DNA of 64,000 nt, from IMG/VR virus record IMGVR_UViG_3300008267_000234. One strand, 5' to 3'. This DNA comes from an uncultured virus (IMG/VR IMGVR_UViG_3300008267_000234) (lineage: Duplodnaviria; Heunggongvirae; Uroviricota; Caudoviricetes). The position numbers were made by a program, and so were the translations under genes. Below the pieces are notes generated by a model, which had not been told where the DNA came from, made no database searches, and worked only from the letters and a program-made list of their open reading frames with translations. Shown here one piece after another: positions 20,291 through 63,280 of the stretch (position 1 is the stretch's first letter; each line of letters opens with the position of its first letter).

Positions 20291-20296
20291 CAATGC

Positions 20297-20428
20297 AAAA
20301 AAGAACCCCCGCCGACTAGAGACTTCGGAAGGGGTTCTTTACCGGATTAGGTCCGGTGTTGAGGGAATCTTGCCGCCAGTCTCTAGTTAGCGCAGGACTT
20401 GCTTACGGCGTGCCGCTACAATCGTCAA
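20297..20428 (-). promoter_or_regulatory. Promoter plus attenuator-type leader upstream of ncRNA copy 1
   Basis: TTGACG -35; ACTAGAGACT (20378-20387) complementary to AGTCTCTAGT (20315-20324) inside a terminator hairpin with U-tract. Confidence 0.65.
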
Positions 20429-20524
20429 GCGGATTCCTTCTGCAAATCCGCATTCGCGTATTTCCGGGATTGACAATGGCTTCCCGGAGATGCACTCTCC
20501 CTGAAACAACCCCGACCACGACCC

Positions 20525-45300: not shown

Positions 45301-48300
45301 AATGACTTCCTTTCTAGCTATGTTGCAAGGGCTGAAAATTCAGTTGAAGATCAGCGTTCCGGCGGTCTTTTTGGTGGGCAACCCAGAACCGTACAGCAAA
45401 TTGTAACCGATCTTACATCCAATGAAAAACAACCAGCAGAACAACAGCAAGATCTCTCGTTTGGAAAACCTCAAGCAGTTCCAGCAAAACAAACAAACAC
45501 CAAAGGACAAAAGGCTAAAACTGCTACTTCAACTCCAGAAGTAAAGGCTGAGGCACCGGACAAGCAGGGCGATGTTGTCGCCTTCATCAAACAAGAGAAC
45601 GACAAGCAGAAAAAATCTCAGGCTTCAGCAGCGAGGAGTAAGCGCATCACCCCAGGCGAAGCCCGCAAGAAAGGCATCGCAATACAGATTGATCGCCTTG
45701 GCATCACCTCCAAAGATCCAGCGTCAGTCATTGCTGCGCTAGAGAAGATCGCAGCCAAGCCGAGCGAGAAGCACCATGGTCGCATCGCCAAGGATCTCCT
45801 CAGCGTACTGGAAGGCTCCGGCGTGCAGATCCAGCTTGTCTCCGGCAACGACGCAAGGATGGCGAAGTACGACTCCCGCGTGAACGGCTGGTACGATCCA
45901 GCGACAAACACGGCATACATCAACCTCGACGGGCCGCACGAACTCGGGATTGAGGAAACTATCCTCCACGAACTCGTCCACGCTTCCGGCGAGAAGGTCA
46001 TCCAGAATCCACAGACGGAAGCGCAGAAGCGTATCCTTGCCGACCTAGAGAAGCAGATGCTTGCCGCTCGCAAGAACGCCATCGCTCTCGGGAAGGCGAA
46101 GATGGGCGTCGATGTATCCGATCTCAAGATACTGATCGACATGGCGGCAGCGCAGAACGACTACGGATTGTTCGACATCCTCTACGGCGTGTCCAGCCTT
46201 TCCGAATACCACGCGCACGCTACGACCAGTCGTTCATTCCAGAAGTTCCTCGCCACCTACAAGGAAGGCGGAAAGCGGTCGCTGATGGAGCGGTTCATCA
46301 ACAGCATCACAAGCCTGCTGTCTGGCAAGAAGACGGCAGACGGATCGGATGCAGAGAAGGCATACGCCACGCTGCTTGACCTGATGCGCGAAGGCAAAGG
46401 GGATGTCCGGCTGTCGAACGCGGATGTCGTGCAGTCTCGGGCGAGGGGTGCATCCACAGAGCAGGATGCTGAATACCTTGAGCTTGCGAAGGATGAAGAG
46501 AAGAACGCAGAGGCTTTGCAGGCCATAGTGGATGCGGCGGCGAAGGCGGCGGGCGGGCAACTTGTGTTCCATGGAGGAGACATCGAAGGCGATGTGATTG
46601 ACGTTAATCGCAGAGAGCGGGGCGCGGAATCGGAACGTAGAGCCGGGACGTTCTATGCGTCGAGCAATCCAGACGCAGCTAAGACGTACCCAGGTAAGCA
46701 GCAGAGACTATTCTTCTTCCTGCGAAATCCATTCCGCATAGGGACTCCAGAGATGAGACCCGCTTCATGGACTGGCGATACGGCGGTTCGTGCTGGCGGC
46801 AAAGTTATCAGCAAGAAGACCAGCCTCTCTATTGGCGAGGCAGTTGATCGCGCCAAGCAGTTCGGGTACGACGGAGTTATTTACGACAACATAGTTGATA
46901 CAGGAAGACTCCCCAGTCAATCAGGCAAACCTCCGATTGGCTCTACTTATGTTGCGTTTAACTCGGAACAAATCAAGTCCGCCGACCCCGTTACCCGCGA
47001 CGACGCAGGCAACGTCATCCCTCTTTCGCAACGCTTCCAGCCAACATCCCCAGACATCCGGTTTTCGCGGGCGCGTGGAACTGCTTCGGACGAGGACGCA
47101 CGGCATGCCGCACTGGAGGCGCGAGCAAAAGACGGGGACGCTGAGGCGACGGCGGAGGCGCAGGCGATAGTGAATGAGGCGGCAGATGATGCGGCGTACA
47201 AGAGGTCTGGATACCACGGCACCCGTGCTTCGTGGACAGTTTGGGATAGCGACATCGCCGGGGGGCTTATAAACATAGGCGAATCAAAAGAAGTGGCAGA
47301 AAGATACGCCACTGGCGCTGGCGGCGGAAGGCAACCACTCAACATTACTGAAGTGGAGTATTACGACGGGCGTAAATTCACTCAACAAAGTTATACGGAA
47401 TGGACAAGCGGGAGCGAGTCGCTATCGACTGAGCAAATCCAGAAAGACGTAGACGACGGGGATGCCGTGCCGACTATTCCGGGCGCATCCGTAAAGAGCC
47501 TCAGATTCAAGGCGGACAAAATCCTTGACCTGACAACACCTGAAGGAATCAAAGTGTTGGCTGGTCTTAACTATACCACCCGTCTTGGGCAGGGGGTTGT
47601 TTCTGATGCAAAAGCCGGGAAGTTCTACTGGGATCGCACAAAGAATGAATACGCATTAAAGACTTGGAAAAATGAACTGATTCCGCAACTCAAGGAATTA
47701 GGATATGATTCCGTCAGGTTTAAGGACGACACACATAATACGATTGCCGTCTTCTCCCCCGAGCAAATCAAATCAGCCGACCCGTTCACCTACGACGAAG
47801 CCGGAAACCTCATCCCGCTCAGTCAGAGGTTCCAACCCGAATCTCCCGACATCCGTTTCTCCCGCGCCCGCAGCATCGTCTCCGACACAGTCACCAAGTT
47901 CGCGCCGGAGTTCAATGTGGTGGACGACAAGGACGGTCCTGCTGTGTTCTTCGACGGGCGCAACGTCACCGTCAATCCAGATGCCCTAGAGAACTTAGAC
48001 GAGTACGAGGTGAAGGACTTGTCCGAGCGGGCGGTCGTCGCCGCAAAAGCTGCGCCAAAAGATCCGATTGCCGCGTCCATCATTCAGCAAACGGACGGGT
48101 ATAGTGCGTACAACTTCGACTCAGCCACCCGCAAAGAGATCCGCAAGTCGCTGGCAAAGGCTCACGCTGTTGCGACCGAGAACGGCATGGCTCCGCTGGC
48201 GATGGATCTTGGCGCAAAGCTCTTTGAGTACGGTGGCGCTACGGATGCGGATGTAAGGAAGTCGATGGCGCGTGGAATTCCTTCGGACGAGGAATACCTT

Positions 48301-51300
48301 GCGACTGTCGAGGCTGGCGATATGGAGAAGGCGCAGCAGATGGTGAATGATTTTATCGGTGAGCCAAATAGCGGAATGACTCGCCTATGGAGATCGGACG
48401 CAGCAAAGGTTGGGACTCCAGTTCCAAACTGGATGGAATCAACAGAGGAGCTTCAAGGAATCAAAGACGCATCCGGTAGGTGGTTCTACAAGACAAAGGA
48501 GGAAGCGGAGCGTCACATGGCGGACTTTGAAGGCGAGTCGCTTTCGTTCGTTGACGTTCCATCTGAATCCGTCGAATCATTCAACGCAAAGGATAATCCG
48601 TTTGCTGGCGGATACGGAAAGCAGGGTTTTGAATACTTCGTCCCTAGGCAAATCGCGGAGGCGAGAGTATCTACGGCTCCAGTGGTTCGCGACGACGCAG
48701 GCAACGTCATCCCGCTCAGCGAGAGATTCCCTGGAGCCGCAATGCCTCAATCCCGCGCACGCGGAGTGGACCTAGTCGCCTATGTTCCTCGTAATCGCTC
48801 AGGCCCTCGTCTCGCCGTAGAGAAGCTCTTCGCCGGATTCCGCAGCCGAGGAATGGTGACGGAAGATGCGTACAATGCATTCAGGGATTTCGAGGCATTC
48901 AAGAAAGAGACTGAGAGCTTCATCGCCTTCATCGCAAAGGACTTCACCAATGTGACGAACAAGCTGTTTGGCGACGGGGCGGACAACTGGTTGAACTATC
49001 GTGTCTTCTCTCGGGATGCGAATGGCAATGTCACCGTCAGTAAGACTGGGTTCAAGACAGCAAAGGATGCAGACAACTTCGCTGCGACCAACAGGTACAA
49101 GGACTACATCGTCTCCACTGGGGAGGAGTTGATGAACAAAGCCCTCGGCAGCAACGGACCTACGCTTCGCGAGGATGTCCGCGACAGGATTGACCAACTG
49201 ACCAAGAAGGGGTTGGACGACATCGCCAAGTCCATCGAAGCCTACAAGGATGAGTATCTGAACTACTGGAATCTCGTCATGATGCAGCCGCAGCCTGGGA
49301 TGATTGATCCAGACCAGATTGCCACCTTGCGTGAACGTAAGGAGCAGTGGATGAAGGCTCTCCAGCTCCGCGCCGCAGAGCAGAGGCAGCTTGTGGACGA
49401 CGCCCGCAAGGAAGCCGTTCGTGTGGCATTGGAAGATGGTGCCAATCATATCATCGCCCAGCAGAAGTTTGCCAAGACGTATCTACCAGACGAGTTGGTC
49501 TACCAGATTGAGCGGACTCGCGATAAGATCGATGAGTTCTCCACGCGGCTCACAAAGATCGGTTGGCTGATGGAAGGAAGCGAACTCCAGATGGTCATTG
49601 ACGGTCGCATGGGTGTCTATGTCACTCGCTCCTATGAGGCGTTTGAGACTCAAGACCGAGCCAACTACGTCGCGTTCTTGGACGAAGCGTATCGCGCTCT
49701 CTACAACCCAGAGCAGGAATACAATAAGCTGGCAATGGAACGGATCATGCCTATGGTCCGACACATCAAGGCTGGGATTACTGAGCGCCGGATTCAGGAT
49801 CTGAAGAGGGAGAATGAGCAGCGCCAGTTGGACGAAATCATGGCGGACCTGATGGCAGATCCACGCCAAGTCACCCAGGTTGATCGAATCCCAGGGCAAC
49901 CAATCGAAGGGACCGAATACGAGCAACTGCTTCGCGCCGTTGCAAGACGGGAGCTTCTGCTTCGTCGATTGAAAGAGAAGGAGGATTTCATTGCCAAGGC
50001 TGTTACCTCTCTTGGGAAAAGCACGTTTGCCAGCAACATCGGCAATGCGCGAAATCGCATGCGTGCAATCAAGAAGGAAGCCAAGCGTCTCTACAGGGAA
50101 CGGTTTGCGGAACAGGTCGAGGTAGCCAATATCATGGGCGCTCCAAACGCTCTCCGGTGGACATTGATGACCGAGGACGAAGCCCACGACATTGCAAACG
50201 TGGAGCGTTCGCTTTCTGAAAGCCCCGGTAACATTGCCGGATCAAAGATCTGGACTGCAAGCATCAGCGGCAGAAAGCACTCGACATTCCATTCGGCAGT
50301 AAGTGATGATTTCAGATCTAATCTAGATACCATCACCAATTCCACGGCATCGCAAACCGGATTCAAGGGAACAGGGGCGGGTGACTGGAGGTCGATCAAT
50401 GACAAGATCCTTGAGTACAAGGAAAACGTGCCAGCATTCCGGCGCTTGTTCTTGGGGGAAATAAACAACCCATTGATGCGGGTTTCCGAAACGCTTACAA
50501 AACAAGCCAGCCTGATTGCTGCCGGAGAGCTGTACCAAAATCTTGCTGACATTGGAATGAAGCAAGGGTGGCTTGTTGAAAAAGAACTAGCCGACACAGA
50601 CACAACGAAATACGCAGGATGGACTTCGATCCTCACATCCAGCGACAACGATCAAGGATACAAAGACAATCCACTCAAGGATCTTGTTGCCGACCCGGTA
50701 ATGGTCGAGGCAATTAGAAAGCTACTGTCTACAAACCAGCCATCAAACAGCGCATTCAAAGCCATATCGTTTACCGTCGGATTGGTTTTGTTTAACCTGA
50801 CCGCAGGTAGCTTTAAGTCCATTCAGCGGAACCTCTCGTCGTTCATTCCGTTCCTTCTCAACACTGGACTTATTGGAGCGATGATCAATCCGCGCAGATG
50901 GTCCGTCGTTACGAGTAATTTCGTTCTTGCGTCCAAGATGGTCGAGCAGTCCATGGCATCTTCCGCTGGCGTCTCCAGTGGAAAAGACATCAGCAATCCA
51001 ATACTCAAGCGTCTCGACAAGGGAGTCAGGATCTTCCTCTCTGGGATTGCCGCTCTTCGCCTGTCTGGATTGGCTGTGAAAGGTGTATCCACTTCCGCTG
51101 GCTTTGTGTTTAGAACCAAGCAAAAGCCAACCAATGAGCAGTTCCAAGAAACGTATCAGCGTGCTGTCGGTCTCGGTGTCGCCAACGACAATGTCGATAA
51201 GGAGGCAATGAGCAAGATGCTCAATCTTGAGGAGACCTTGAACCGCAAACCGAAAGACAAGAAGCTCGGTAAACTTGGGAAGGTGTTGATGCTTAACGAA

Positions 51301-52782
51301 GCCTCTGAATTTGGATCTTATGCATTCTCTTTGGCGAAGTCAACGCTGAAAGAAAGAAGTCAGCTCTACGGAGCGCCGGATGATTTTACGAAGATCTTCG
51401 CATGGCTCAACGAGATGGATGCCCAAGCCCGAATCCATGCAAAGGATACTGCCGAGTACGAAAAGTGGAGAGGGAAGGACGGCTTGTTCTCAGACATGCC
51501 GCCAGAGCATGTCGAATTGGCGGCAGAGTATACGACCGATCTTGTTCAATCGCACTCCAAGGTCTGGGCGCACATCACCCAGTTCAAGAAAGCCGGGTTC
51601 GGGGTTCTTGCTGCTGCGTTCATTGCGGCCAAGGCTGAGTTCTATCGCAACGCATTCAACTCTTATAGGATTGCAGTCAAAGAGATGAGGTCAAAGAATG
51701 AACGCGAAAGAAACGCCGGGATAGCACGGTTTGCTTCCGCCCTTACCGCTCACTTTGTTTATGGTAATGCCATCGGATACGGATTGAAGATGATCTTGAA
51801 AGCGTTCGCTGATGACGATGAAGTGGTTGAGGATTCCATTGAGATCCGCAACGCAATCAGCGCCCTCGGACCTGAGTACGCGAAGAACAAGAATGCGACC
51901 TATGTCGTCTACAAGAATGGCACGTTCGACTGGGTTGATCTTAGCTTCTCCACTCCGTTTGCGTTTGTCTGGGAAACCATCAACGCCGGAAAGCGTGGAG
52001 TCTCAGAGGCCCAAGTCGAAGACAACATCGTTTGGGAAATGACTAAGGAGATTGTCGGGGAGAACCTCGGCAACTTCGCTTCGCCACAGATTGCGTTGGA
52101 TGCATTCGCGGTAATGCGTACCGGGTTTGATCCTATTCGCGGGGTCAAGATCTGGGACTCTCAAACAGACAACATGGGCGAAAAGCTAATGAAGTCTATG
52201 GGCTACTTCCTGAAGAAAGTCGGATCTCCGGGCGATGTGAAGAGTGTATCAAACATCGTCAACGCGGCTCGCGGGATCGAAGAGAACGGGCGACAGTACA
52301 AGCTCGGCACTGAAGTTGGGTCTGTGTTCTTGGGAACCTCTGTCAGGACATTCAAGATTGCAGACATCGTCGAGCAGAAGCTGGCGCAGGGAACCAACAG
52401 CCTGAACAACAGAATCACTCCGCTCTATAATTCCGTGCTGACGGAATCGAATGACGTGTCCATGGATGATTGTGAATCAGACACCACTGAATACTACAAG
52501 ACCGATGTAGAGGTGATGACCAAGATGCAAAAGATATGGGCGGCGGGGAATACGCTACTGGCAGATACTCCCGGCGGAAAGAAGATGCTTAGTGCTGTAA
52601 TTGGAGGCGACAAGGTAAAGATGGAGAGCAACCGGGAGCGTGCCCTCACTACCGGGAAGCGCCATCGTGTAACGCTCTCCGATTCCATGGACCGAAAGGT
52701 CAAAGGGCTTGGCGACAAGTACGACGACCCGCGCCACAAGGTCGTGAAGGATACCCTGAAGAAGCTCAACGAGAAACCGTGA
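39334..52782 (+). CDS. Giant polyvalent injected virion protein (4482 aa): ddrB-ParB-like, zincin metallopeptidase, multiple ART-like domains
   Basis: ELQPRDR...GAP...VLSGNGR (~44350-44800), ILHELVH (45961-45981), HG..F/Y..S..A..Y..GYDG modules, repeated DD.GN.IPLS.RF. Confidence 0.85.
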   Translation: METPTSTGTVTQPAPLKPWKQVAEESNIFSLPPEQRIAEYDKWSAENVAQGIKDGDFDSRGTFDQFKLFDIRTRKNLASDDIVGASDEEVFADYEAFKGAFASTQAAFSANKPTPQDEAIQGEVLQGKRKSAFLRGQMFFNPAVVNDPQKYREAILESDAPADIKMFYAGLRPEMEKSATVTRRRELANNVITRDVADKVVTAIQEGTELFGADIGTPQSPALKKNKDGIWSVVDPEYSDKETSFLGRANAKYNPLADSLYKPFAAINEYQQKYGLTDEQVQQDYMESLIENAPTSVNRWFGKATSIEEYVKQLDSTVRVKNKDVAPEVRVQDPNLFFDAEGYNAAVDKAKAPDEAKTFAKEARTQFADAVAGDIYNNLLNNRDDFREGYAKDVVDRKDMEKAITRYYKDKKDQAWYDDVGETIGQAGTALKQGGMDLMMMPSAIKGMFGDVEAAENYRYYTLAQKGEMQAEEAVANRTGGAGFIKLNNDVMRIIPDLVVQMVIAVATGGMLSGAQASLIAARTGISRAAATTALRQAAITGEKTALKSQLLRLIPEVTAKTVDDVAEEVLKASARTVSNNPFKGGIGTQRAVGSAYAGLSSASATFGQVYTDVRNMGKSPEESIATARTAGIVAGAITSGLTHSFGMLGRGGVEDFASMGRKAGEFTIKDIVNAGMLDSLKTPEGRQLIRNIAKGISKDALSEGAEEGLDQALNLISQYATNPSPEAQNRKATDIINESLYASLLGGIAGSGAASVGQARASAPGITAQQIQAEILGAQQPPVAGVPPVQPQQPPVQAPPVVPVAPVVPSANPAVQNAQAVANAAAAIPNTSQTAAALAAFANAAAFPMPEKNLPEIETPKPAPEPEVQPAEEPVAVQPEPATPEVAPANAEKTPIEPTPTPAKVEPEPTENMKTEEKPLTDDAAEAMRDIIQMKKSKGEKPNDAMVSKLAEYDAKKSGVTVEQGDIVSNIVVGHPMFEPPHPELKNLIPIKIRNKGDASGSVDRALKVKEKALKYIGGYQYNQSKAKTPAQKKQFAKDFNQQELNRQEEILGYLNNDVFPELKRIEEAAPEAKPEVARDTTKTEQMTPEKGDEVFVKGGDERITRRIDNIFTAEGKQMVLLQGLRDPMPLDEVTVDPKSDYRKRKQKKAEQKPQTVDASPQLIRQLGDFAVRDRQPINQEYINASGGVVPEGYVKQGELYVYQPEQKAEAVVEARVEPAKPAPQTQSSQKLPKELAGAKPRYGYANINTELSFASDFDKAAYIVAQEKKNRRHDDYMKWAVQSSGLTEEQVRAHGTIVRESIKASIKPYAQNKRPVPALFPVAATPVNPSAQAVKPTVKPAQRTPVQAVISKAITETLPLDLTKAKPRYAFKDKNFIVSFVSDFDKAAYIVSQPEDKQNKQHAKYLAWATSASGLTAEQVQAHGSYVRQSIKTIAQNAEGGTPSAPKSITIGKQYTKTKPAVESKPTQGTTPEKQPAQPSKKKILFRGFGRKEKGSVYSDRADGPVLGGGKYYAFNEEEASRYGPEVEQVEFDASNALVISSDKEWSDLTKKLGWRFPNPSGRSPETAKQEIKTLTNYLKAKGYTAIVVDGIKGSVGDNAKLLKNVFGTDQVFIPEGFPETPTQVKPEQKAAGQEGEVKAEAPAKGTSKPKGIQGSAFESSMPKGKERVTGQYVVIEAGDLVTSFDPGFPKELQPRDRTRAASKEQISEIAINLAPERLGDSPTVDVGAPNIDDNGAVLSGNGRVTAIRANYESGGVDYKNWITQNAERFGFNAADIAAMKNPVLVRRISDYGKLSKEEFAVQANQSQVLSMSKGEKAKADASILLANTDLFSKFRPSEDGNVLVSTNREFIAGFVQETGAMDLLAADGSWTPDLGVRIQNAVLATMLDGDAVIIQNLIEDPSGYGLKKVSSALLLNAPNLIKLFGTDWSINQPLAQAIKDFISVKNAGQKVEEFLDQSMLFADPERTAVSDILLTKLFNAKSQKELNDFLSSYVARAENSVEDQRSGGLFGGQPRTVQQIVTDLTSNEKQPAEQQQDLSFGKPQAVPAKQTNTKGQKAKTATSTPEVKAEAPDKQGDVVAFIKQENDKQKKSQASAARSKRITPGEARKKGIAIQIDRLGITSKDPASVIAALEKIAAKPSEKHHGRIAKDLLSVLEGSGVQIQLVSGNDARMAKYDSRVNGWYDPATNTAYINLDGPHELGIEETILHELVHASGEKVIQNPQTEAQKRILADLEKQMLAARKNAIALGKAKMGVDVSDLKILIDMAAAQNDYGLFDILYGVSSLSEYHAHATTSRSFQKFLATYKEGGKRSLMERFINSITSLLSGKKTADGSDAEKAYATLLDLMREGKGDVRLSNADVVQSRARGASTEQDAEYLELAKDEEKNAEALQAIVDAAAKAAGGQLVFHGGDIEGDVIDVNRRERGAESERRAGTFYASSNPDAAKTYPGKQQRLFFFLRNPFRIGTPEMRPASWTGDTAVRAGGKVISKKTSLSIGEAVDRAKQFGYDGVIYDNIVDTGRLPSQSGKPPIGSTYVAFNSEQIKSADPVTRDDAGNVIPLSQRFQPTSPDIRFSRARGTASDEDARHAALEARAKDGDAEATAEAQAIVNEAADDAAYKRSGYHGTRASWTVWDSDIAGGLINIGESKEVAERYATGAGGGRQPLNITEVEYYDGRKFTQQSYTEWTSGSESLSTEQIQKDVDDGDAVPTIPGASVKSLRFKADKILDLTTPEGIKVLAGLNYTTRLGQGVVSDAKAGKFYWDRTKNEYALKTWKNELIPQLKELGYDSVRFKDDTHNTIAVFSPEQIKSADPFTYDEAGNLIPLSQRFQPESPDIRFSRARSIVSDTVTKFAPEFNVVDDKDGPAVFFDGRNVTVNPDALENLDEYEVKDLSERAVVAAKAAPKDPIAASIIQQTDGYSAYNFDSATRKEIRKSLAKAHAVATENGMAPLAMDLGAKLFEYGGATDADVRKSMARGIPSDEEYLATVEAGDMEKAQQMVNDFIGEPNSGMTRLWRSDAAKVGTPVPNWMESTEELQGIKDASGRWFYKTKEEAERHMADFEGESLSFVDVPSESVESFNAKDNPFAGGYGKQGFEYFVPRQIAEARVSTAPVVRDDAGNVIPLSERFPGAAMPQSRARGVDLVAYVPRNRSGPRLAVEKLFAGFRSRGMVTEDAYNAFRDFEAFKKETESFIAFIAKDFTNVTNKLFGDGADNWLNYRVFSRDANGNVTVSKTGFKTAKDADNFAATNRYKDYIVSTGEELMNKALGSNGPTLREDVRDRIDQLTKKGLDDIAKSIEAYKDEYLNYWNLVMMQPQPGMIDPDQIATLRERKEQWMKALQLRAAEQRQLVDDARKEAVRVALEDGANHIIAQQKFAKTYLPDELVYQIERTRDKIDEFSTRLTKIGWLMEGSELQMVIDGRMGVYVTRSYEAFETQDRANYVAFLDEAYRALYNPEQEYNKLAMERIMPMVRHIKAGITERRIQDLKRENEQRQLDEIMADLMADPRQVTQVDRIPGQPIEGTEYEQLLRAVARRELLLRRLKEKEDFIAKAVTSLGKSTFASNIGNARNRMRAIKKEAKRLYRERFAEQVEVANIMGAPNALRWTLMTEDEAHDIANVERSLSESPGNIAGSKIWTASISGRKHSTFHSAVSDDFRSNLDTITNSTASQTGFKGTGAGDWRSINDKILEYKENVPAFRRLFLGEINNPLMRVSETLTKQASLIAAGELYQNLADIGMKQGWLVEKELADTDTTKYAGWTSILTSSDNDQGYKDNPLKDLVADPVMVEAIRKLLSTNQPSNSAFKAISFTVGLVLFNLTAGSFKSIQRNLSSFIPFLLNTGLIGAMINPRRWSVVTSNFVLASKMVEQSMASSAGVSSGKDISNPILKRLDKGVRIFLSGIAALRLSGLAVKGVSTSAGFVFRTKQKPTNEQFQETYQRAVGLGVANDNVDKEAMSKMLNLEETLNRKPKDKKLGKLGKVLMLNEASEFGSYAFSLAKSTLKERSQLYGAPDDFTKIFAWLNEMDAQARIHAKDTAEYEKWRGKDGLFSDMPPEHVELAAEYTTDLVQSHSKVWAHITQFKKAGFGVLAAAFIAAKAEFYRNAFNSYRIAVKEMRSKNERERNAGIARFASALTAHFVYGNAIGYGLKMILKAFADDDEVVEDSIEIRNAISALGPEYAKNKNATYVVYKNGTFDWVDLSFSTPFAFVWETINAGKRGVSEAQVEDNIVWEMTKEIVGENLGNFASPQIALDAFAVMRTGFDPIRGVKIWDSQTDNMGEKLMKSMGYFLKKVGSPGDVKSVSNIVNAARGIEENGRQYKLGTEVGSVFLGTSVRTFKIADIVEQKLAQGTNSLNNRITPLYNSVLTESNDVSMDDCESDTTEYYKTDVEVMTKMQKIWAAGNTLLADTPGGKKMLSAVIGGDKVKMESNRERALTTGKRHRVTLSDSMDRKVKGLGDKYDDPRHKVVKDTLKKLNEKP

Positions 52783-53305: not shown

Positions 53306-53589
53306 TCGACGCACTCATTATCTCCGTCGCCGCCACTTACGCGACAATGCTTTGGCTTGCATACACGCTCGCCAAAGAACTTCGCCGCAAGCAGGATGAG
53401 ATCAACATTCTCGCGCAGACTCTCAGGAAATGGGAGGACGAACTTTCAACCGAGATGCCGCCCGAGTTCAAGGACTGGTGGCAGAATGATCGCGCCGAGT
53501 GGCCAATGGTTGCTTCCGCGCTAATCCGATCCCTGAAAGCAGACAACGAACGCGCCTGGGATATGGCGCTCAAAAATAAACGACCATGA
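53302..53589 (+). CDS. Single-TM coiled-coil protein
   Basis: N-terminal TM helix; coupled ORF. Confidence 0.6.
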   Translation: MIDALIISVAATYATMLWLAYTLAKELRRKQDEINILAQTLRKWEDELSTEMPPEFKDWWQNDRAEWPMVASALIRSLKADNERAWDMALKNKRP

Positions 53590-53798
53590 CGCACATCTAC
53601 CGAGTCTTCACCCGCCAAGGATACGTCAAGCTCCTCAACGCGGACCCGTATTGTAAAGAGCCGATCCCTCTTCCATCTGAAGGCTGGGAGTACGTTCGCG
53701 ACATCGACGCCGTAGAGTTCATCGAAAACATGGCGAATGGATACCGGGATCCATCTGATCTCTTGGACGAACTTCAATTTACACCAGAAACAGCATGA
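53586..53798 (+). CDS. Hypothetical protein (70 aa)
   Basis: Coupled ORF. Confidence 0.65.
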   Translation: MTHIYRVFTRQGYVKLLNADPYCKEPIPLPSEGWEYVRDIDAVEFIENMANGYRDPSDLLDELQFTPETA

Positions 53799-54229
53799 GT
53801 GAACCACAAATCATAAACCCCACCACCGAGACATCATCTACGGCAAGTCATCGCGATGAACCACTACGGATGTTCCATTCCCCATACGGGCATTCGGACG
53901 AGGAGAACTTCGTCTTCTTCTTCAATCGCCTTCAAGCCAAAGCGCACGTAAACGCCGTCGCCAAGGGTTTCTGGGAAACTGAGCGTTCCGATGGAGAGTC
54001 CATTGCGCTGATGCACTCAGAACTCTCTGAGGCACTGGAAGCCTTACGCCACGGCAATCCTCCAGACGACAAGGTTCCCCAGCACTCAGGGGCAGCAGCA
54101 GAGCTTGGCGATACCATCATCCGTATCATGGACCTCGCCGGGAAACGCGGCTGGAACGTGGCGCAGGCGATGATCGACAAGATGGAATTCAACGCCCAGC
54201 GGGCATACAAACACGGGAAGGAATTTTGA
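53795..54229 (+). CDS. MazG-like nucleotide pyrophosphohydrolase
   Basis: IALMHSELSEALEA...ELGDTIIRI.D...KM..N..R.YKHGK. Confidence 0.85.
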   Translation: MSEPQIINPTTETSSTASHRDEPLRMFHSPYGHSDEENFVFFFNRLQAKAHVNAVAKGFWETERSDGESIALMHSELSEALEALRHGNPPDDKVPQHSGAAAELGDTIIRIMDLAGKRGWNVAQAMIDKMEFNAQRAYKHGKEF

Positions 54230-54231
54230 TT

Positions 54232-54744
54232 ATGACCATCCAATACCCCATCACTCCCGGCGAGGACTCCGTCGCCATGGCGCTCGTCACCGCAGCCATC
54301 CAAGCTGCCGCTCAGTACGTCTCGGTCAGGCACCAGATCCCGATCAACAATGTCCTGGCTGGCATGAGCGTGTCCGCAAACCTGCTGCCGCCCATCAACA
54401 TGGCGCTCCAGTCATTTCAGGAGAAGCAGTTGGCTCAACAGATCGCTGCCGCTACGCCTGCTCCAGCACCTCCTCCGCAGCCGCCAAGTCCTCCGAGGCA
54501 GGCACCGAAACCGCAGCCCGTGGTTGTGCCTCAGCAGATCGTGGAGCCACCACCACCGAACTCTCCGGCCTACGCGATCTACGCAGCCAGAGCTTTGTCG
54601 CAAGACCGTCCGGCACCGATCCCATCTGCGCTTGTGGATCTCCCAAAAGTTGAGCCTGTGCCTGTTGCGGAAGCGCCACTGAAGGTACTGCCGGAAGTTC
54701 CGCTCAAAAAAAAGCCCGGTCGTCCGAAGAAAGTCACTGAGTAA
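54232..54744 (+). CDS. Pro-rich protein with C-terminal AT-hook-like KPGRPKK
   Basis: Low-complexity ORF, last of plus-strand block. Confidence 0.65.
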   Translation: MTIQYPITPGEDSVAMALVTAAIQAAAQYVSVRHQIPINNVLAGMSVSANLLPPINMALQSFQEKQLAQQIAAATPAPAPPPQPPSPPRQAPKPQPVVVPQQIVEPPPPNSPAYAIYAARALSQDRPAPIPSALVDLPKVEPVPVAEAPLKVLPEVPLKKKPGRPKKVTE

Positions 54745-54768
54745 TTCTCCTCCACCAACCCGACCAGA

Positions 54769-54804
54769 GGAAGCCTGTTGATTTAGTTCAGCAGGCTTTC
54801 TTTT
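54769..54804. terminator. Terminator at convergence of the two transcription blocks
   Basis: AAGCCTGTTGA...TCAGCAGGCTTTCTTTT. Confidence 0.75.
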
Positions 54805-54819
54805 GCGTATATAGTACAA

Positions 54820-55222
54820 CAGGAATCCAGAAGCGAGGAGCCAGAGCAGACAGAACATCGCCCCTGCCTATCGGCATTGGGATGATGTACTGGTACAAGC
54901 AGAGATCCAAGAAGGAGTCACCGTCGCTTTCGCAGGTGCTGAATTGGGAGGTGTCAAACTCACAGACTTGCGGGAACACTCGGCAATCTATCATTGCCTC
55001 CAAACCGCAATACGCACATCGTCCTTGGCTTTCAGGCCAATGTTTTGGGATTCGTCTGTTCCATCACTCCAGAGGGCGAGTTCTGGCGGAATGGATTCGG
55101 AGAGTGCTGGACCGTTACCGTGTCCTCCGGGTTCCCGTCTGGCTCGGGTTCTATTGCTGCCAGATGACTAAAGACTCTGGGGTGCCTTGTTCCCGCCACG
55201 CGTTTGACGGTATCAACAGAAA
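54820..55222 (-). ncRNA. Putative large structured ncRNA, copy 2
   Basis: Homologous to 19908-20290; identical core at 54944-54963; covarying helices; GAAA tetraloop on minus strand. Confidence 0.75.
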
Positions 55223-55223
55223 C

Positions 55224-55342
55224 AAAAAAGCCCCAACGACTCGCCTTCGTTGAGGATTTTCTGGTGGAGTGATCCACTTAATAAATTGCGACGATGGCGA
55301 GTCGGTCTTCCGAAGACTTAGCCAGCCGCCCATTGTTTGCAA
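55224..55342 (-). promoter_or_regulatory. Promoter plus attenuator-type leader upstream of ncRNA copy 2
   Basis: TTGCAA -35; CGACTCGCC (55296-55304) complementary to GGCGAGTCG (55237-55245) within a terminator hairpin with U-tract. Confidence 0.65.
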
Positions 55343-55345
55343 GCC

Positions 55346-55594
55346 CTATTTCTCAGGTTCCTCCGGGGGGTTTCTGTGTGGTTTTACCCGAATACTAATG
55401 TGGGAACAGGCACTGAAGTACACTTCCTCCAGCTCCTTGTTGTCCAGCCGCGCCAGCCGGACTGTGTCAACCGTGGTGCCAATCTGATCCGCGACAACAA
55501 CTCCCTTCCAGATCGGGCGAGCGTACTCAACCCGCAGGACAACTCCAGCTTCAGGCTTCCCCTCCCTGTGTCTGCGGATGATTGTGTCTTTCAT
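55346..55594 (-). CDS. Hypothetical protein (82 aa)
   Basis: ATGA-coupled ORF. Confidence 0.65.
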   Translation of the reverse strand: MKDTIIRRHREGKPEAGVVLRVEYARPIWKGVVVADQIGTTVDTVRLARLDNKELEEVYFSACSHISIRVKPHRNPPEEPEK

Positions 55595-56076
55595 GGCCAA
55601 GAAGTCTCGCCATCCCGCTCGTCCAGCAGCTTCTCCATGTTGGTTTTTAAGCCAGCCTGCTTGAGAACTTCTCTGACGATCCCGTCTTCTGGAAAGCCAG
55701 CAGCGGTAAGTTCATCACCGGACAGCTTGGAGAGATCGACGTGGACCGTATCATCCTCGGCATCCACATAATCCGGGTTGGGATACAGAAAACGAACGGT
55801 TGCCGCATTTTTGGCGCACTGCCTGTTCCGCTCCGCGATCTGCTCCTGCGTGGGTCCAGCGTAGGTTGCCTCAACTGCACGCTCCCGCTGAATCTCCAGC
55901 CATCGCTCCATGGTAGTAATGACCTCCTTGGCATCCTCCTCGGCAGACTTGTGCTTCCGACCGCAGCGCAGGATCTTCTTCAACGCCTGCCCGAGAATCG
56001 GGTCCAGCCCGTACTCAATGGCGATACGGTACGGGTCCGCTACGACGCCGCCGATCTTGATCTTGTATGGGTCCAT
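55591..56076 (-). CDS. DUF3310-like N-terminal domain protein
   Basis: DPY.I...YGL....QA.KK.LR.G.K...ED..E pattern. Confidence 0.6.
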   Translation of the reverse strand: MDPYKIKIGGVVADPYRIAIEYGLDPILGQALKKILRCGRKHKSAEEDAKEVITTMERWLEIQRERAVEATYAGPTQEQIAERNRQCAKNAATVRFLYPNPDYVDAEDDTVHVDLSKLSGDELTAAGFPEDGIVREVLKQAGLKTNMEKLLDERDGETSWP

Positions 56077-56078
56077 GG

Positions 56079-56407
56079 TCAGAAATCAATACCGTCTTCG
56101 TCCTGCCGTGCGCTTGGTCGCCAGTCCTTCGGCGCTCCGGTTTCCTTGGGCTTCGGACGACCGCCGGAACCGATCTGCACGATCTTCCATGCCGTCAGAT
56201 TATTGTAGACACTGCCGGACTTGGCCCGGTTGCCGCGAATGTTGAAGTGAACATCGACTTCATCCCCGACCTCGTAAGCATCCAGAGTGTCCACGTTTTT
56301 CTGGGTCATCTCCAGCTTGATCTCTTGAAGTTCCCGACATAGGCAATGTCTTTGATTTCGGAGATTGTACCCCGGACGGTATAGGCTAGTTGTTTTTCTT
56401 GGCTCAT
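56079..56407 (-). pseudogene. DUF3127-like OB-fold ssDNA-binding protein, frame-broken near 56325
   Basis: N-part MSQEKQLAYTVRGTISEI...GNFK in one frame; QEIKLEMTQ...GDEV.V.FNIRG...YNNL.AWKI and acidic DGIDF tail in another. Confidence 0.75.
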
Positions 56408-56715
56408 TGTAGTTGGAAAGTAGCGCAGTGTTTTTTCATCAAGCAGAATTGGCAGTGACCGCCGAGTGTACCTTCTGGCATGTCATCAAAATGTCCATTC
56501 CAATCGCGGGCAATCTGCTTCGCTTCGGACAAGGCTCCTGTGATCTTCAGTGCCAGATCGGACGGAGGATTACTCCCCTCGGAAAGCTCAGTGATAGACT
56601 CTTCGACTTCGCTCCACCGTTCGACGGCATTCGACAGACGTATCACACTGTCGTCCAGTACGACGGAGAGCCTGCATTGGAGCAGGGCGCGGAGGAGATC
56701 GGTCAAGGTTCTCAT
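56404..56715 (-). CDS. Protein ending in a Cas4/PD-(D/E)XK-like G.HC.FC.....C tail
   Basis: Only the C-terminal Cys motif is recognisable. Confidence 0.55.
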   Translation of the reverse strand: MRTLTDLLRALLQCRLSVVLDDSVIRLSNAVERWSEVEESITELSEGSNPPSDLALKITGALSEAKQIARDWNGHFDDMPEGTLGGHCQFCLMKKHCATFQLQ

Positions 56716-57125
56716 TGATTGTTCAACGCCTCGGCAAACATGAGGGCGTGCTTGAAAGTGAATAGAGTGAGAATAAAGAGGATCGCCAAACAGACGTACA
56801 GGTATGGCTTACCGGGAATCTCTTCTTCTTCTTTCCTTGGAGCCACAAGTTCAGGCTCAAGGATCGCCCTGCCGTCGATAAAGAACGTGCGGGATTCATT
56901 TTGCGACATGTACTCAACAAGGAGGTCGCGCTCTGATCCAAGCGGGATTCCGTACAGCATGTAGTGATCCCGAACGATGTCGATGGCATCCCGAACTGTC
57001 ACAAGCACCGTCTTGTTTGCCAGCCTTTCTTCCAAAGCGGAGTCCATGGCAGGGAACGGTTCGACATGAACAAGCAGAAGCTGCCTGTTTTCAAGAAGGT
57101 AATCAATGTCGTCGTTCCCTGCCAT
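56712..57125 (-). CDS. Hypothetical protein with C-terminal TM helix (137 aa)
   Basis: Start moved to ATG 57125. Confidence 0.65.
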   Translation of the reverse strand: MAGNDDIDYLLENRQLLLVHVEPFPAMDSALEERLANKTVLVTVRDAIDIVRDHYMLYGIPLGSERDLLVEYMSQNESRTFFIDGRAILEPELVAPRKEEEEIPGKPYLYVCLAILFILTLFTFKHALMFAEALNNQ

Positions 57126-57487: not shown

Positions 57488-57706
57488 GTGTGCCTTTCGA
57501 TACGGCTGGCTGATATGTAGTCAACTACGCATGTGCGTATTAAGCGGGATCTTCTTTCTTGTCCTTGTCTGCACAGCCGTCACAGGCAAAGACAAGTCGC
57601 CCAAGAACGAACGCAACGTCAACGACATCCCCGCAGCCGGGGCATGGTCTTGCTTCGACTGGAGCAATCATCTTTCGGATACGCTCTGAGATTGTGGTGT
57701 GGTCCA

Positions 57707-59068: not shown

Positions 59069-59970
59069 TAGATTGATTTCTTGAAGCCTCCCCGTTTCTG
59101 CTGCTCATCGCGGCGTTTCGCCTCAGCCAAGTTGTCCAGCTCAGAAATCACCCGGTTCCAGTGCAGACAGAGGAACGTAGGATCGCAAGCCTGCTTCGAC
59201 AGCGAGGCAAACTGGAGCGTACTGGCACCGAGGACTTCGTCGTAGATCCGCAGGAAATCTTCGGCAGAGGCATCGCAGTTCTGAAGGAATTTCTCCAAGG
59301 CTTTCGGGAATCTTGGAGGAAACATGAACGCATCCGACTTCCGACCATTCCAGACTCCTTTGATCTGGCTGGTGATTTCGTGATGCCGTTGATCCTGCTC
59401 CTTGGCTGGCTTGGATTTCTTGCTGGATTTTTCTGGCTGGGATTCAAGTTCCATATCGGTATCTAGTTCGTTGTTGGCTGGTTCGTTCAGTCGAGACTCA
59501 AAAGCAATCTCCGCGAGTGCGGCGTGAGCCGGAGGCGAAAGAGCAATCGTGTGCATTGGTTCTTTTTCTGGTTCTTTTCTGATTCCTTCTGATTTGGGTG
59601 TCAATTTGGGGGAGACCCCCCTGTCTATTTGTACCAGGGGGGGTGGTACAATCTGACAGGGGGGAGTGGTACAATTTGGGGGAGGGTCCAATTCGTCACC
59701 ACCAGATCCAAGCGGAGTTTTTGGGTGCAATCGGTACATCGGAGTAGTCCCTGGGCGGGCAATCTGGGTGATGTGTCCAGCCCTTTTTAGCTCCCGAATC
59801 GCACGCCTCACGGCACGCTCCTCCAAGCAGGTTTCGGCACACAGGACCGCAACTGATGGATCGCATCTACCTGTCGTTTCGTTCAGGTGATCCGCCAGCA
59901 TCAAGCCAACGAACTTCGCGGAGGATGGAGCTTCGATGAGCTTGAATCGCTGCATCATCTGGATGCTCAC
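59068..59970 (-). CDS. Phage replication initiator (N-terminal winged HTH)
   Basis: LADH....G.CDPS...L..ETCL.ER.VRRA..EL...G; directly upstream of helicase. Confidence 0.8.
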   Translation of the reverse strand: MSIQMMQRFKLIEAPSSAKFVGLMLADHLNETTGRCDPSVAVLCAETCLEERAVRRAIRELKRAGHITQIARPGTTPMYRLHPKTPLGSGGDELDPPPNCTTPPCQIVPPPLVQIDRGVSPKLTPKSEGIRKEPEKEPMHTIALSPPAHAALAEIAFESRLNEPANNELDTDMELESQPEKSSKKSKPAKEQDQRHHEITSQIKGVWNGRKSDAFMFPPRFPKALEKFLQNCDASAEDFLRIYDEVLGASTLQFASLSKQACDPTFLCLHWNRVISELDNLAEAKRRDEQQKRGGFKKSI

Positions 59971-60539
59971 GTAGCTTGGCCCTCTCTGTAAAATCCACCA
60001 AACGCCTCTTTTGCTGCCTGTTCGTATGTCCTAGACGCCAATTCAACATCATCAAAATACCCAAGAGCAAACTTCCTGCCGTTTATTGTAATTTGAGCGC
60101 ACCATTTCCCAACTTGCTTTGCATAAAAAACGCCTTTCCTTCCGCTCGTATTATTGCTCGGTTTTCCTCGGTTCCTTTGATTATCAGTATGCGTTGCAAG
60201 CCTAAGATTCTCAGGCCGATTATTCAACCCATTATTATCAATATGATCTACTTCAAACCCAATAGGATCAATCCCGGTTGATAAAAAATACACAATACGG
60301 TGATTCCTATACATGCGACCGTTTATCATAAGTATGAAATACTTATCGGTTTCATTGTTTTCCTTTAGGCATCCAGCCTCCTTAGTTGAGAAATTTCCAT
60401 TAAATATCTTCTGTCCGCGTTTGTTTTTGAAATGATGCTCTGGTCTTGCCTTCCAGCGCAGCCCGGTGCTGCTGGTTAAGTCGATTTCCAAAGATTCTAG
60501 GATCAAATCAACCGGAAGCGGAGTTGCTTTCTTGCTCAT
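59967..60539 (-). CDS. HNH endonuclease with AP2 domain
   Basis: HRIV, VDHIDNNGLNNRPENLR, NTSG.KGV, LGYF; AT-richer than neighbours; start ATG 60539. Confidence 0.92.
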   Translation of the reverse strand: MSKKATPLPVDLILESLEIDLTSSTGLRWKARPEHHFKNKRGQKIFNGNFSTKEAGCLKENNETDKYFILMINGRMYRNHRIVYFLSTGIDPIGFEVDHIDNNGLNNRPENLRLATHTDNQRNRGKPSNNTSGRKGVFYAKQVGKWCAQITINGRKFALGYFDDVELASRTYEQAAKEAFGGFYREGQAT

Positions 60540-60551
60540 GGTTCTGGCAAA

Positions 60552-60704
60552 TAAAAGAGCCTTTCCCGGATACTGGTAGAAGTCGCCCCGTGACAGGCGG
60601 CAGTATCCAAGGAAAGGCAGATTGGTCGTCATGGAATGAACAGGACTTCTACATCCCGGCGCAGTTGCACAGCAGACGATATGCTCGTCTTTCTTAAAGG
60701 TCAA
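60552..60704 (-). promoter_or_regulatory. Promoter plus attenuator-type leader of the replication operon
   Basis: TTGACC-17-TATCGT; GTAGAAGTC (60644-60652) complementary to GACTTCTAC (60576-60584) in long hairpin followed by TCTTTTATTT. Confidence 0.7.
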
Positions 60705-60883: not shown

Positions 60884-61486
60884 TCATCTCAAAAACGGGG
60901 CGATCTGCTCAACCGGATACCGCCGCTTCCCGCTGGCATCCAGCAGCGTCACAATCCATCCACGGACGGGATCAAAGACACCCGCTGGTCTGTGAGCGTA
61001 GCGTCCATTGAAAGCGTTGTACGCATTCATGGTCACGAAATGCTCCCTCGGTCGCTCCTTCCAAACGATTCCACTCCTGGATTCAGGCGAAAGCCGATAC
61101 TGATCCCGGATGGACTGAATCTGCGCTTCGGACAATCGCAGTGACGACCTTGGCCTGATTGCGGCAAACGGACGCGGCTTGCGCTTACTGCGCTCTGCCT
61201 TGATCTGGTTCTCGGTGACGAGGTTTTTGAAGTCCCAGTTCATCCCGTTGCCGTCGAGGTAGTGGATTTTTGAATCCGGCAGCTTTCCTGTATTCAACAG
61301 CCACACAATATCGCCCATCTCGTAAGAGTGATTCTCCCATTTGAGAATGTATTTGTTCCATTGGAAGCTCCCAGCCATCCCGCCAATCGGCTTCCGGGGG
61401 GTGTTGATCTTCCATCGCATGACTTGGTGCTTGGCGTCGTATTCCCAGATGCGCTTTACCGTCTCAACTGTGAGTGTTCGTTTCAT
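60884..61486 (-). CDS. Degenerate HNH-derived protein with duplicated N-terminal-type domain
   Basis: IHYLDGNGMNWDFKNL in place of DH.DG..LNN..NL; second module SGIVWKERPREHF...FNGRYA.RPAG. Confidence 0.7.
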   Translation of the reverse strand: MKRTLTVETVKRIWEYDAKHQVMRWKINTPRKPIGGMAGSFQWNKYILKWENHSYEMGDIVWLLNTGKLPDSKIHYLDGNGMNWDFKNLVTENQIKAERSKRKPRPFAAIRPRSSLRLSEAQIQSIRDQYRLSPESRSGIVWKERPREHFVTMNAYNAFNGRYAHRPAGVFDPVRGWIVTLLDASGKRRYPVEQIAPFLR

Positions 61487-62103
61487 CAGTATCCAAAGGC
61501 GGCGATAGTTCTCTCGAAAGGCTTACCGGGTAGGCTCTTTACCAGTTCCAGCATCTGCTCGGCAAGCTCCCGGATCTCCCGCTGGGCGTTCGGCTTCATA
61601 CGGAGACCTAGGAAATGAGCGAAACTCCTGAAGTTGAACGAGACATCCAGCGTGATCTGGTTGCTGTATCCCAAGAAAAACCGCGACGACTCTTTCGCTC
61701 TCGCTCGTCCAAGGATCGGAGTCAGCTCTTTCAGCGCATCCTTATATTCTTGGACGCAATTCTCATGGTGACGACGCAGGCGTTCTTGCAGTAGCTCCGG
61801 CCAATCGCTCGGGATCAACGCAGTCGGAGCGCCAAGCTCTTTGTAGCGGGCGGATTCCCCGTTCGCACCAGTTCCCGCACGGTGCTTCAATATATGTATG
61901 TGAGTAGCCGTATCCACACGCACAAGAAAGTGCAACATACTTCTCTCGTAGGGCGAGTGATGTCCGGCAGTTGCCAGCATCTTCAGTAGATCACCGATCC
62001 GCGCACGCTTACCCTCGTCAATGTCCCGGCTGGTAGATGTCCATGCCGCCAGTGCATGAGTCTCGTCGCCACCGTAGTATCCAATCAATTCAACCGTATT
62101 CAT
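61486..62103 (-). CDS. thyX: Flavin-dependent thymidylate synthase
   Basis: GHHSPYE, KHR-x7-SARY, NFRSF.HFL.LR, AQ.EIR. Confidence 0.93.
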   Translation of the reverse strand: MNTVELIGYYGGDETHALAAWTSTSRDIDEGKRARIGDLLKMLATAGHHSPYERSMLHFLVRVDTATHIHILKHRAGTGANGESARYKELGAPTALIPSDWPELLQERLRRHHENCVQEYKDALKELTPILGRARAKESSRFFLGYSNQITLDVSFNFRSFAHFLGLRMKPNAQREIRELAEQMLELVKSLPGKPFERTIAAFGY

Positions 62104-62990: not shown

Positions 62991-63280
62991 TCAGGCAGGA
63001 CTTCAACCCATTCCGTGACAGTGTAGCCAGCCGCTTTCCATTTTTTCGCCGTATCAGATGAATCCGTTTCCGCCTTCGTGTATTCAACTTGCCACATCCG
63101 CCGCGGCTCCGGCTTGACTCGCCAGCGGGTGAGGTCGCTTTGCATGTCGGGACCTGATGTCGATCCGTTGTCAACCCAGCCGACTACTTTGGTGTCGTAC
63201 TCAAGGATTTTCCCGTTCGCCTTGGCGACGTAGAGCGCCGCGAGTTCGGATGCTTTGGTTCTGATTTCTTCTGAATTCAT
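62987..63280 (-). CDS. Hypothetical protein (97 aa)
   Basis: A.GK..EY...W....P...WRVKPEP pattern. Confidence 0.7.
   Translation of the reverse strand: MNSEEIRTKASELAALYVAKANGKILEYDTKVVGWVDNGSTSGPDMQSDLTRWRVKPEPRRMWQVEYTKAETDSSDTAKKWKAAGYTVTEWVEVLPE

Follow-up and report, generated by a model that had tools for sequence, protein, structure and literature searches.

A structured non-coding RNA, possibly terminator-gated, encoded in two diverged copies by an uncultivated freshwater tailed phage

Bacteria and phages have few large RNAs that combine many conserved helices with invariant junction nucleotides, and those of this kind that have been solved are ribozymes, riboswitch-like sensors or RNA-only cages. 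Among phage RNAs, the pRNA of phi29 has a promoter of its own, closes an early operon and is followed by no open reading frame (ORF), the RNA itself being the product. Phage HK022 encodes two diverged structured RNAs, putL and putR, which are located just past promoters, are conserved in structure more than in sequence and are linked to the control of termination; the put RNAs are ~70 nt in length, form two stem-loops and precede the terminators that they suppress. In the pR'-tR' region of phage lambda, a promoter is followed by a short leader and a strong terminator, generating a short 6S transcript that is read through when Q acts. GOLLD and ROOL, as presented in PMC12286853, are large multi-helix phage RNAs that were recognised by covariation and have no known protein partner or function. 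In addition, a covariation-based survey of intergenic regions by Fremin, Bhatt and Kyrpides in 2023 reported 10,006 viral candidate structured RNAs, as stated in PMC10690425. Here, we describe a structured RNA element in a stretch of 64,000 nt (referred to here as the window) from an uncultured member of the Caudoviricetes (IMG/VR record IMGVR_UViG_3300008267_000234), which carries two copies of the element on its minus strand.

The core of copy 2, as delimited by covariation, spans positions 54812-55198 (minus strand) and comprises ~390 nt with 16 predicted helices. The core of copy 1, as delimited by full alignment and a profile search, spans positions 19897-20285 (minus strand) and is 57% identical to that of copy 2. 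A BLAST comparison between the copies returned a single 52-nt block, while full alignment and nhmmer recovered both copies and no third copy in the window. A reading made from the sequence alone (referred to here as the sequence-only reading) had placed copy 2 of the element at 54820-55222, and this stretch was confirmed as a diverged paralogue of the element at ~19897-20285 on the same strand. Copy 1 is located at the head of the leftward (minus-strand) arm, beside the terminase genes, and copy 2 at the end of the same arm, past the replication genes, with both copies representing direct repeats at the two borders of the late (plus-strand) module. In our judgement, there is about an even chance that the element represents a new, terminator-gated, stand-alone structured phage non-coding RNA, with the RNA itself being the functional product.

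The family, as observed here, is composed of elements on 11 IMG/VR contigs of relatives, on one metagenome contig of the Joint Genome Institute (JGI; designated L032) and in the window phage, all of which belong to one freshwater phage clade. In total, ten distinct sequences, including both window copies, were obtained, representing approximately five sequence types that are 57-70% identical among themselves. All contigs with an 87%-identical terminase were shown to carry the element, upstream of the terminase gene and on the opposite strand, as does L032, which is a closer relative of the window phage. Between phages sharing this 87% terminase identity, the element is 61-70% identical and is thus far more diverged than the adjacent terminase, with its fold being kept. 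Neither copy had a match among 50,697 phage records in blastn searches (distant mode), and an exact 20-mer of the most conserved block was found in IMG/VR solely in a 30.4-kb fragment that matches the initial part of the window exactly and is not independent of it. A degenerate pattern of the core matched 12 stretches in IMG/VR, every one from the same phage clade, and three in JGI metagenomes, representing one known element, L032 as a new one, and L033, which was rejected as a chance match as nhmmer did not recognise it. The same pattern had no matches in 185,579 species genomes, and nhmmer did not detect the element in 66 loci of other phages (512 kb in total).

Joint folding of copies 1 and 2 resulted in 79 pairs, 32 of which exhibit compensatory double changes. 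A consensus of eight sequences comprises 92 pairs in 16 helices, with standard pairs in 93.1% of the cells across these sequences, compared with 40-47% when pairing partners were slid by one to three columns. Similarly, compensatory double changes were observed for 42 of the 92 pairs, compared with 7-11 for slid partners, and none of 500 shuffles matched the observed value on any of five measures. The best-supported helices are 4, 5, 7, 8, 9, 12 and 15, with helices 1-3, 10 and 16 being weak. In copy 2 (minus strand), the well-supported helices correspond to positions 55164-55159/55143-55138 (H4), 55129-55124/55103-55098 (H5), 55095-55083/55072-55060 (H7), 55059-55054/54967-54962 (H8, which closes a multi-helix domain), 55042-55035/55031-55024 (H9), 54998-54992/54988-54982 (H12) and 54891-54881/54862-54854 (H15). 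The invariant unpaired blocks of the same copy are AGUCAU (55169-55164), AAAAC (55046-55042), GUUUGGA (55005-54999), GUUCC (54977-54973), UUGAC (54957-54953) and GCGA (54927-54924). The number of consensus pairs kept was 74 for copy 2, 80 for copy 1 and 79 for the relative L017, and 25 pairs of copy 2 differ from the majority on both sides yet still pair. Candidate pseudoknots identified by hand (GGAGG with CCUCC, yAAAAC with GUUUGG, and a CGCC loop with GGCG) involve invariant bases, which places them beyond a covariation test, and no claim is made for them.

The predicted pairs include 55 G-U pairs as opposed to 11 A-C pairs, and the alifold energy was -80.3 for the minus strand as compared with -67.8 for the plus strand; the G-U excess and the better fold of the minus-strand alignment indicate that the element is read from the minus strand. 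A plus-strand protein-coding gene is a barely credible explanation, although an open frame of ~125 aa is found on that strand in both window copies (a 123-aa ORF at 54882-55253 in copy 2 and a 127-aa ORF at 19871-20254 in copy 1, the antisense ORFs of the window copies measuring 123-141 aa overall). Neither frame remains intact in the L007 and L017 sequence types, where the longest open stretch is 70-85 aa, and the codon scores of the two frames were -0.05 and -0.12. Furthermore, BLASTP similarity between the two deduced products is confined to 31 residues over the conserved nucleotide block, neither product matched Pfam or PHROG, and the indels between copies 1 and 2 are not multiples of three. 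With compensatory pairing beyond that of the controls and no conserved reading frame, the element has the hallmarks of a structured non-coding RNA.

The two copies flank the late module as direct repeats, one by the terminase gene and the other by the replication genes, which would also suit a site acting at the DNA level, such as a replication origin or a packaging or recombination site, of which the fold would be a by-product. However, iterons and AT-rich stretches were looked for and not found (GC content of 0.49-0.57), and the more than 40 compensatory pairs together with the one-strand G-U excess argue for selection on a single-stranded fold, rendering a DNA-level site highly improbable.

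A scan of the whole window with Rfam 15 at gathering thresholds returned one tRNA and no other family. Scans of each individual copy returned matches only at E values of at least 2, and three relatives yielded nothing at E values up to 1. To our knowledge, Rfam holds a model for the pRNA. It also holds profiles for GOLLD and ROOL, as indicated in PMC12286853. Membership of the pRNA, GOLLD or ROOL families was rejected on the basis of these scans. A group I or group II intron was likewise rejected, as no Rfam intron model matched either copy at E values up to 10 and no split ORF flanks the copies.

The element is closest in kind to the orphan ornate phage RNAs GOLLD and ROOL, as presented in that paper, sharing with them a large multi-helix architecture, recognition through covariation, and the lack of a known protein partner or function. 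PMC12286853 describes the 3' region of GOLLD as better conserved and its 5' region as variable, a pattern also seen in the A family of the element (copy 1 and L032), in which the 3' part is 96% identical and the 5' part 68%. Unlike GOLLD and ROOL, the element is located off tRNA islands, with the sole tRNA gene of the window being 6 kb away, and occurs in two diverged copies with a terminator-bearing leader ahead of them, in a single freshwater phage clade. It is also smaller, measuring ~390 nt as compared with ~580 and more than 800 nt. The phi29 pRNA, which is named in PMC12286853, is similar to copy 2 in having no ORF behind it, and one copy of the element adjoins packaging genes. Unlike the pRNA, the element had no Rfam match, the large terminase of the window phage is a conventional protein of 615 aa, and nothing ties the element to the virion. 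With regard to the survey in PMC10690425, the five sample numbers of the element-bearing contigs, used as prefixes, were absent from six of its supplementary files, namely those other than files 1, 2 and 4.

The surroundings of copy 2 were as proposed by the sequence-only reading, which had stated that no same-strand gene lies downstream, that the next gene is convergent and that the copy ends just before a hairpin. The sole sizeable minus-strand ORF downstream (54412-54858) scores -0.26 bits per codon, while the score of +0.22 for the convergent plus-strand gene (54226-54744) falls among those of 18 trusted genes (0.03-0.51). Covariation supports the core as far as ~54812, just short of a hairpin (AAGCCTG..CAGGCTT; 54769-54804, plus strand) located between this core and the convergent late gene. 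As a T-rich tail accompanies the hairpin on the plus strand but not on the minus strand, it reads as a terminator of the late operon rather than of copy 2; judged on this feature, it is probably the plus-strand late-operon terminator and perhaps a bidirectional stop. The hairpin was missing from the terminator scan, which accepts loops of 3-8 nt, because its loop is 14 nt in length. The scan did return a weak terminator-like site on the minus strand (54706-54728; a 5-bp stem followed by T8), located inside the 3' end of the convergent gene, which is a possible 3' end for a copy-2 transcript that reads through. Direct repeats between positions 54708-54730 and positions 55224-55233 and 55303-55316 (a 14-mer at 93% identity and the exact 10-mer AAAAAAGCCC) link this weak site to pieces of the copy-2 leader, and may be due to chance.

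Conservation of copy 2 was also apparent from three metatranscriptome libraries of three studies, in which contigs were found on 54762-55101, corresponding to the 3' half of copy 2; one of these contigs covers 54762-55045. In these contigs, the 3' half exhibited 0 differences over 203 positions in run X18, 9 over 284 with 2 gaps in run X19, and 5 over 182 with 1 gap in run X20. Contigs of neighbouring genes from the same runs (pieces of 86 nt or more) differed by 4.7%, 8.0% and 14.9% in X18, by 8.0%, 9.6% and 11.4% in X19, and by 4.8-12.6% in X20. The 3'-half contigs are therefore 0-4% diverged as compared with 5-15% for the flanking genes, i.e. two to four times less, which shows that the 3' half of copy 2 occurs in diverged strains and evolves at a lower rate than the neighbouring genes. 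Bins of the leader and of the 5' core region had zero cover in the three RNA libraries, an absence that carries no weight.

Since no gene follows copy 2, the product is probably the RNA itself, as the sequence-only reading had argued in stating that the element could not be merely a riboswitch in a 5' untranslated region. That argument is strengthened by the kept fold of copy 2, by the slow change of its 3' half, and by the genes downstream of copy-1-type elements, which do not represent one family. A riboswitch or gene-specific 5' untranslated region was rejected as an explanation of the core, considering that copy 2 lacks a downstream gene and that copy-1-type elements are followed by an HNH-AP2 gene at seven of nine loci and by unrelated ORFs in L008, L009 and the window. 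The same argument is weakened by the promoter-like sequences, the terminator upstream of the core and the operon-heading position of copy-1-type elements, each of which is addressed below.

Upstream of its core, copy 2 was found to possess a promoter-like block and a leader, in line with the sequence-only reading, which had assigned both to 55224-55342. The block (55315-55342, minus strand) consists of TTGCAA (55342-55337), a 16-nt spacer and TAAGTC (55320-55315), and begins 4 nt past the stop codon of an 84-aa gene (55346-55600, minus strand). A sigma-70 scan found no site here and did not confirm the proposed promoter, but the block does resemble the conserved TTGACG..GTAGCGGCACGCCGTAA sequence (TTGACG..GCGGC..GTAA) of copy 1 and its orthologues. 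The corresponding region upstream of copy 1 (20400-20462, minus strand) comprises the palindromic AATACG-N6-CGGATTTGCA (20462-20441) followed by TTGACG (20428-20423), a 17-nt spacer and TAAGCA (20405-20400). This block is conserved in seven aligned copy-1-type leaders, and likewise fails the sigma-70 scan. When IMG/VR was searched with the conserved block, nine of 11 matches were from the same clade. An exact 20-nt match to the copy-1 block at L111:1120-1138 and L113:1501-1519 was rejected, as it belongs to an unrelated AT-rich phage without the element and, lying in apparent coding sequence, is probably a coincidence.

The copy-2 leader (55222-55310, minus strand) contains a predicted long-range pairing, P1, with arms at 55304-55291 and 55250-55237, and a hairpin, P2, at 55277-55264. 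It ends in an intrinsic terminator identified by the terminator scan, with its stem at 55255-55231 and a T-run at 55229-55224, a feature that the sequence-only reading had overlooked. The P1 5' arm would begin a few nucleotides after the start site predicted from the promoter-like block, while the P1 3' arm corresponds to the terminator loop together with the first 3 nt of the terminator's 3' arm. P1 was recovered by a repeat finder as an inverted repeat of 14 nt with 93% complementarity. The copy-1 leader (20297-20392, minus strand) exhibits the same arrangement, with P1 arms at 20392-20378 and 20324-20310, followed by the P2 hairpin, the terminator hairpin and a U-run. Both hairpins are predicted in all eight leaders, which span 85-100 nt and whose last 48 nt fold at -14 to -22 kcal/mol ahead of a U-rich tract in every case. 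With a hairpin followed by a U-run, the leader contains an intrinsic terminator. In each of the eight leaders, an 8-10-nt stretch within the first 45 nt is also complementary to the terminator loop (including the initial bases of its 3' arm), a complementarity that occurs in five sequence versions and was matched by 0-13 of 500 shuffles. Given this conserved alternative pairing to the terminator loop, the leader is a putative attenuator.

As the loop cannot pair fully with a distant strand while its own stem is closed, P1 and the terminator would, on topological grounds, be mutually exclusive, and the leader looks like a termination/antitermination gate. A promoter, short leader and terminator ahead of material reached only by read-through are also found in the lambda pR'-tR' region. 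Unlike that region, the element has an RNA gene behind the terminator, and neither a Q-like gene nor a qut-like site could be identified; the complementarity between the 5' end and the terminator loop suggests an RNA-intrinsic switch. The HK022 put RNAs resemble the element in their promoter-proximal layout and in occurring as two copies. They differ from it in that the core of the element comprises ~390 nt and is located downstream of the leader terminator, and in that copy 2 has no operon to antiterminate.

In an alternative that we consider unlikely, the element would act in cis on transcription or mRNA of the leftward arm, serving either as a termination-resistant 5' leader or to stabilise or process a long transcript. 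Copy 2 would then act on read-through at the convergent junction or be a duplicate without a job of its own. All nine distinct copy-1-type loci head a minus-strand operon, straight after the promoter-like block and leader, the leader resembles a termination/antitermination device, copy 2 is placed where minus-strand transcription meets the late-operon terminator, and the HK022 put RNAs likewise exist as two diverged copies per phage. However, the core lies past the leader terminator and consequently cannot act on it, and the genes downstream have their own repeated upstream motif and vary among phages. Moreover, copy 2 keeps its fold and is more conserved than neighbouring genes with nothing behind it, and a core of ~390 nt with more than ten helices is far above the size of known cis antiterminator RNAs.

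The upstream motif of these genes (AATACGCAGAAACGTATTTGAA) is intergenic, occurs right after the copy-1 core (19875-19896, minus strand), where it marks the 3' limit of the core, and is also found ahead of several other minus-strand genes. In its general form, AATACG-N6-CGTATTTGAA, it consists of a palindrome (ATACG..CGTAT) followed by TTGAA, TTGCA or TTGAC, with eight matches at six sites as compared with a chance expectation of 0.4. The sites are located at 16888-16913 and, on the minus strand, at 18913-18934, 19561-19582, 19875-19896, 20441-20462 and 57520-57541. The motif occupies short gaps ahead of minus-strand ORF starts and recurs ~1 kb downstream of the element in relatives. It resembles an operator combined with a promoter, or else an RNA hairpin, that accompanies each gene cassette.

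Copy 1 precedes an 85-aa ORF (19581-19838, minus strand) and, after it, a gene with Pfam domains HNH_3 and AP2 (18933-19565, minus strand), as the sequence-only reading had noted in raising the possibility that the RNA is partnered with, or mobilised by, an HNH protein. The 85-aa ORF has no Pfam or PHROG match and is an insertion specific to the window phage, being absent from L032, L010 and L017, where the HNH gene directly follows the element. When neighbouring genes were tabulated across copy-1-type loci, the directly downstream gene did not represent one family. A gene for an HNH_3+AP2 protein lies within 300 nt downstream at seven of the nine distinct loci, in three versions, with identities of 45-50% between versions and ~86-100% within them, and with tandem pairs at some loci. 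The position is occupied by other ORFs in L008 and by a 129-aa ORF without a Pfam match in L009, where the locus then ends. Copy 2 has no HNH neighbour, the closest being 5 kb away. The HNH proteins comprise 190-211 aa and match only HNH_3 and AP2 in Pfam. Furthermore, a comparison of L032:1259-1716 with window positions 19860-20302 revealed 96% identity over H8-H16 on the 3' side and 68% over H3-H7 on the 5' side, with flanks that are ~86-88% identical; as judged from these identities, the element is mosaic, with a recombination breakpoint inside the RNA gene.

Free-standing homing endonuclease genes, such as the seg and mob genes of T4, settle by conserved sequence and drive local gene conversion. 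The HNH-AP2 gene looks, on its domain content and presence/absence variation, like a gene of this kind, and its presence or absence, the orphan copy 2, the mosaicism and the high divergence of the element fit homing genes and local gene conversion rather than a protein-RNA partnership, for which no support was found, HNH-AP2 genes being absent at L008, L009 and copy 2. HEARO, the omega-RNA of IscB, is similar to copy-1-type elements in being a structured RNA of a few hundred nucleotides directly 5' of an HNH-nuclease ORF; this assignment was rejected for lack of an Rfam match and on the HNH_3+AP2-only composition of the neighbouring protein. Unlike HEARO, the element lacks the HNH gene at three sites, and the protein is of the homing type.

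In a further alternative, the element would be chiefly the cargo or target of homing mobility, i.e. a recognition site for HNH-AP2 in the form of an RNA gene or an intron-like or ribozyme remnant, with its diversity and second copy arising from endonuclease-driven gene conversion and, in the boldest form, with the RNA working together with the HNH protein. The seven of nine loci with a nearby HNH_3+AP2 gene, the presence/absence variation right at the 3' edge of the element, the mosaic L032 and the 61-70% identity of the element where terminases share 87% are all consistent with this proposal. It is nevertheless quite improbable, as three sites have no adjacent HNH gene, the proteins are ordinary HNH_3+AP2 proteins, and neither flanking exons nor a group I or II match in Rfam were observed. 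Homing would account for the spread and mosaicism of the element, but not for the conservation of an elaborate fold.

Returning to the reading of the element as a terminator-gated RNA product, each of the two units would consist of a promoter-like block, an 85-100-nt leader with its terminator, and the core. The leader would fold into either P1 or the terminator, so that transcription is gated and RNA polymerase enters the core only in the read-through state, with production of the core presumably limited to a particular time or condition. The folded core would then function independently, as a particle of RNA alone or of RNA and protein, instead of acting on a single gene downstream. The copy-1 transcript may continue into the genes behind it, where the HNH-AP2 genes would be homing genes for which the conserved RNA gene serves as a landing site, whereas copy 2 has nothing behind it. 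The claim of the sequence-only reading that copy 2 is a stand-alone transcription unit is thereby retained in part: the unit is self-contained, but its core lies behind a terminator and would be reached only by read-through.

Several observations weigh against this reading. The promoter-like blocks of both copies fail the sigma-70 scan, and a strong terminator is located between the putative promoter and the core, with no second promoter seen in between. The position of all nine copy-1-type loci at the 5' end of an operon fits a cis role too. The fold is not unusually stable, with ordinary and non-significant minimum free energy z-scores of -0.44 (minus strand) and -0.59 (plus strand), and the case consequently depends on covariation from approximately five independent sequence types. 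The RNA-library contigs say nothing of strand, ends or transcription, as they are possibly DNA-derived and the neighbouring genes are covered too. In the databases searched, the family appears only in one phage clade. Finally, the copy-2 site is bridged by no contig of a relative, and its long-term position is accordingly not demonstrated: the larger contigs of relatives stop short of it, IMG/VR contains no relatives of the two genes nearest copy 2, relatives of DnaB do not exceed 40% identity, and 62 pyrophosphatase loci found when searching for this site belong to other phages.

With regard to the phage as a whole, the plus strand of the window from ~20525 to 54744 encodes the packaging and structural genes of an uncultivated tailed phage, including the large terminase (21085-22932; PHROG 2) and, within the structural module, a single ORF of 4482 aa (39334-52782). 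The replication module is encoded on the minus strand from 63999 down to 55346 and includes genes for DnaB, an O-like initiator, ThyX and a resolvase, while the other minus-strand block extends from 19838 downwards. No cultured phage is close, the top terminase identity in tblastn being 28%, and sequence words of 53500-57000 were present in runs of 17 studies, freshwater or sediment for most. Additional genes encode a ferredoxin-like protein (6871-7503, minus strand; PHROG 3704), an RNA ligase (10576-11262, minus strand; PF09414), a MazG-like pyrophosphatase (53795-54229, plus strand), ThyX (61486-62103, minus strand) and one tRNA (13545-13617, minus strand), and may hint at the host or lifestyle of the phage. 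Three minus-strand ORFs of the replication module (59967-60704, 60884-61486 and 63277-63948) represent a second full HNH_3+AP2 gene and two ORFs whose match to the same PHROG 99 is limited to its N-terminal part; the latter two, which lack a Pfam HNH domain, may be degenerate or split homing endonucleases.

The element adds an RNA family without a match in Rfam 15, as seen so far in one freshwater phage clade. Its leader, in which the terminator loop pairs with the 5' end of the transcript, was matched to no described attenuator, and the occurrence of two paralogues in the same genome, one of them an orphan, provides a natural test of the RNA as product. As the element diverges far more quickly than flanking genes with its fold kept and serves as an insertion hot spot for homing genes, it offers a compact system for the co-evolution of selfish nucleases and RNA genes. 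More tentatively, and with the chances weighing against so full an account, the element could belong to a class of large phage RNAs not described before, complex in fold and with a biochemical job of their own, as a ribozyme, an RNA-only assembly or the RNA core of a particle. It would be made only on the opening of a novel type of gate, in which the 5' end of the leader captures the loop of its terminator, and would exist in rapidly diversifying specificity types. Two such types per genome, at the junctions of the leftward and late arms, could set the switch from one transcription programme to the other.

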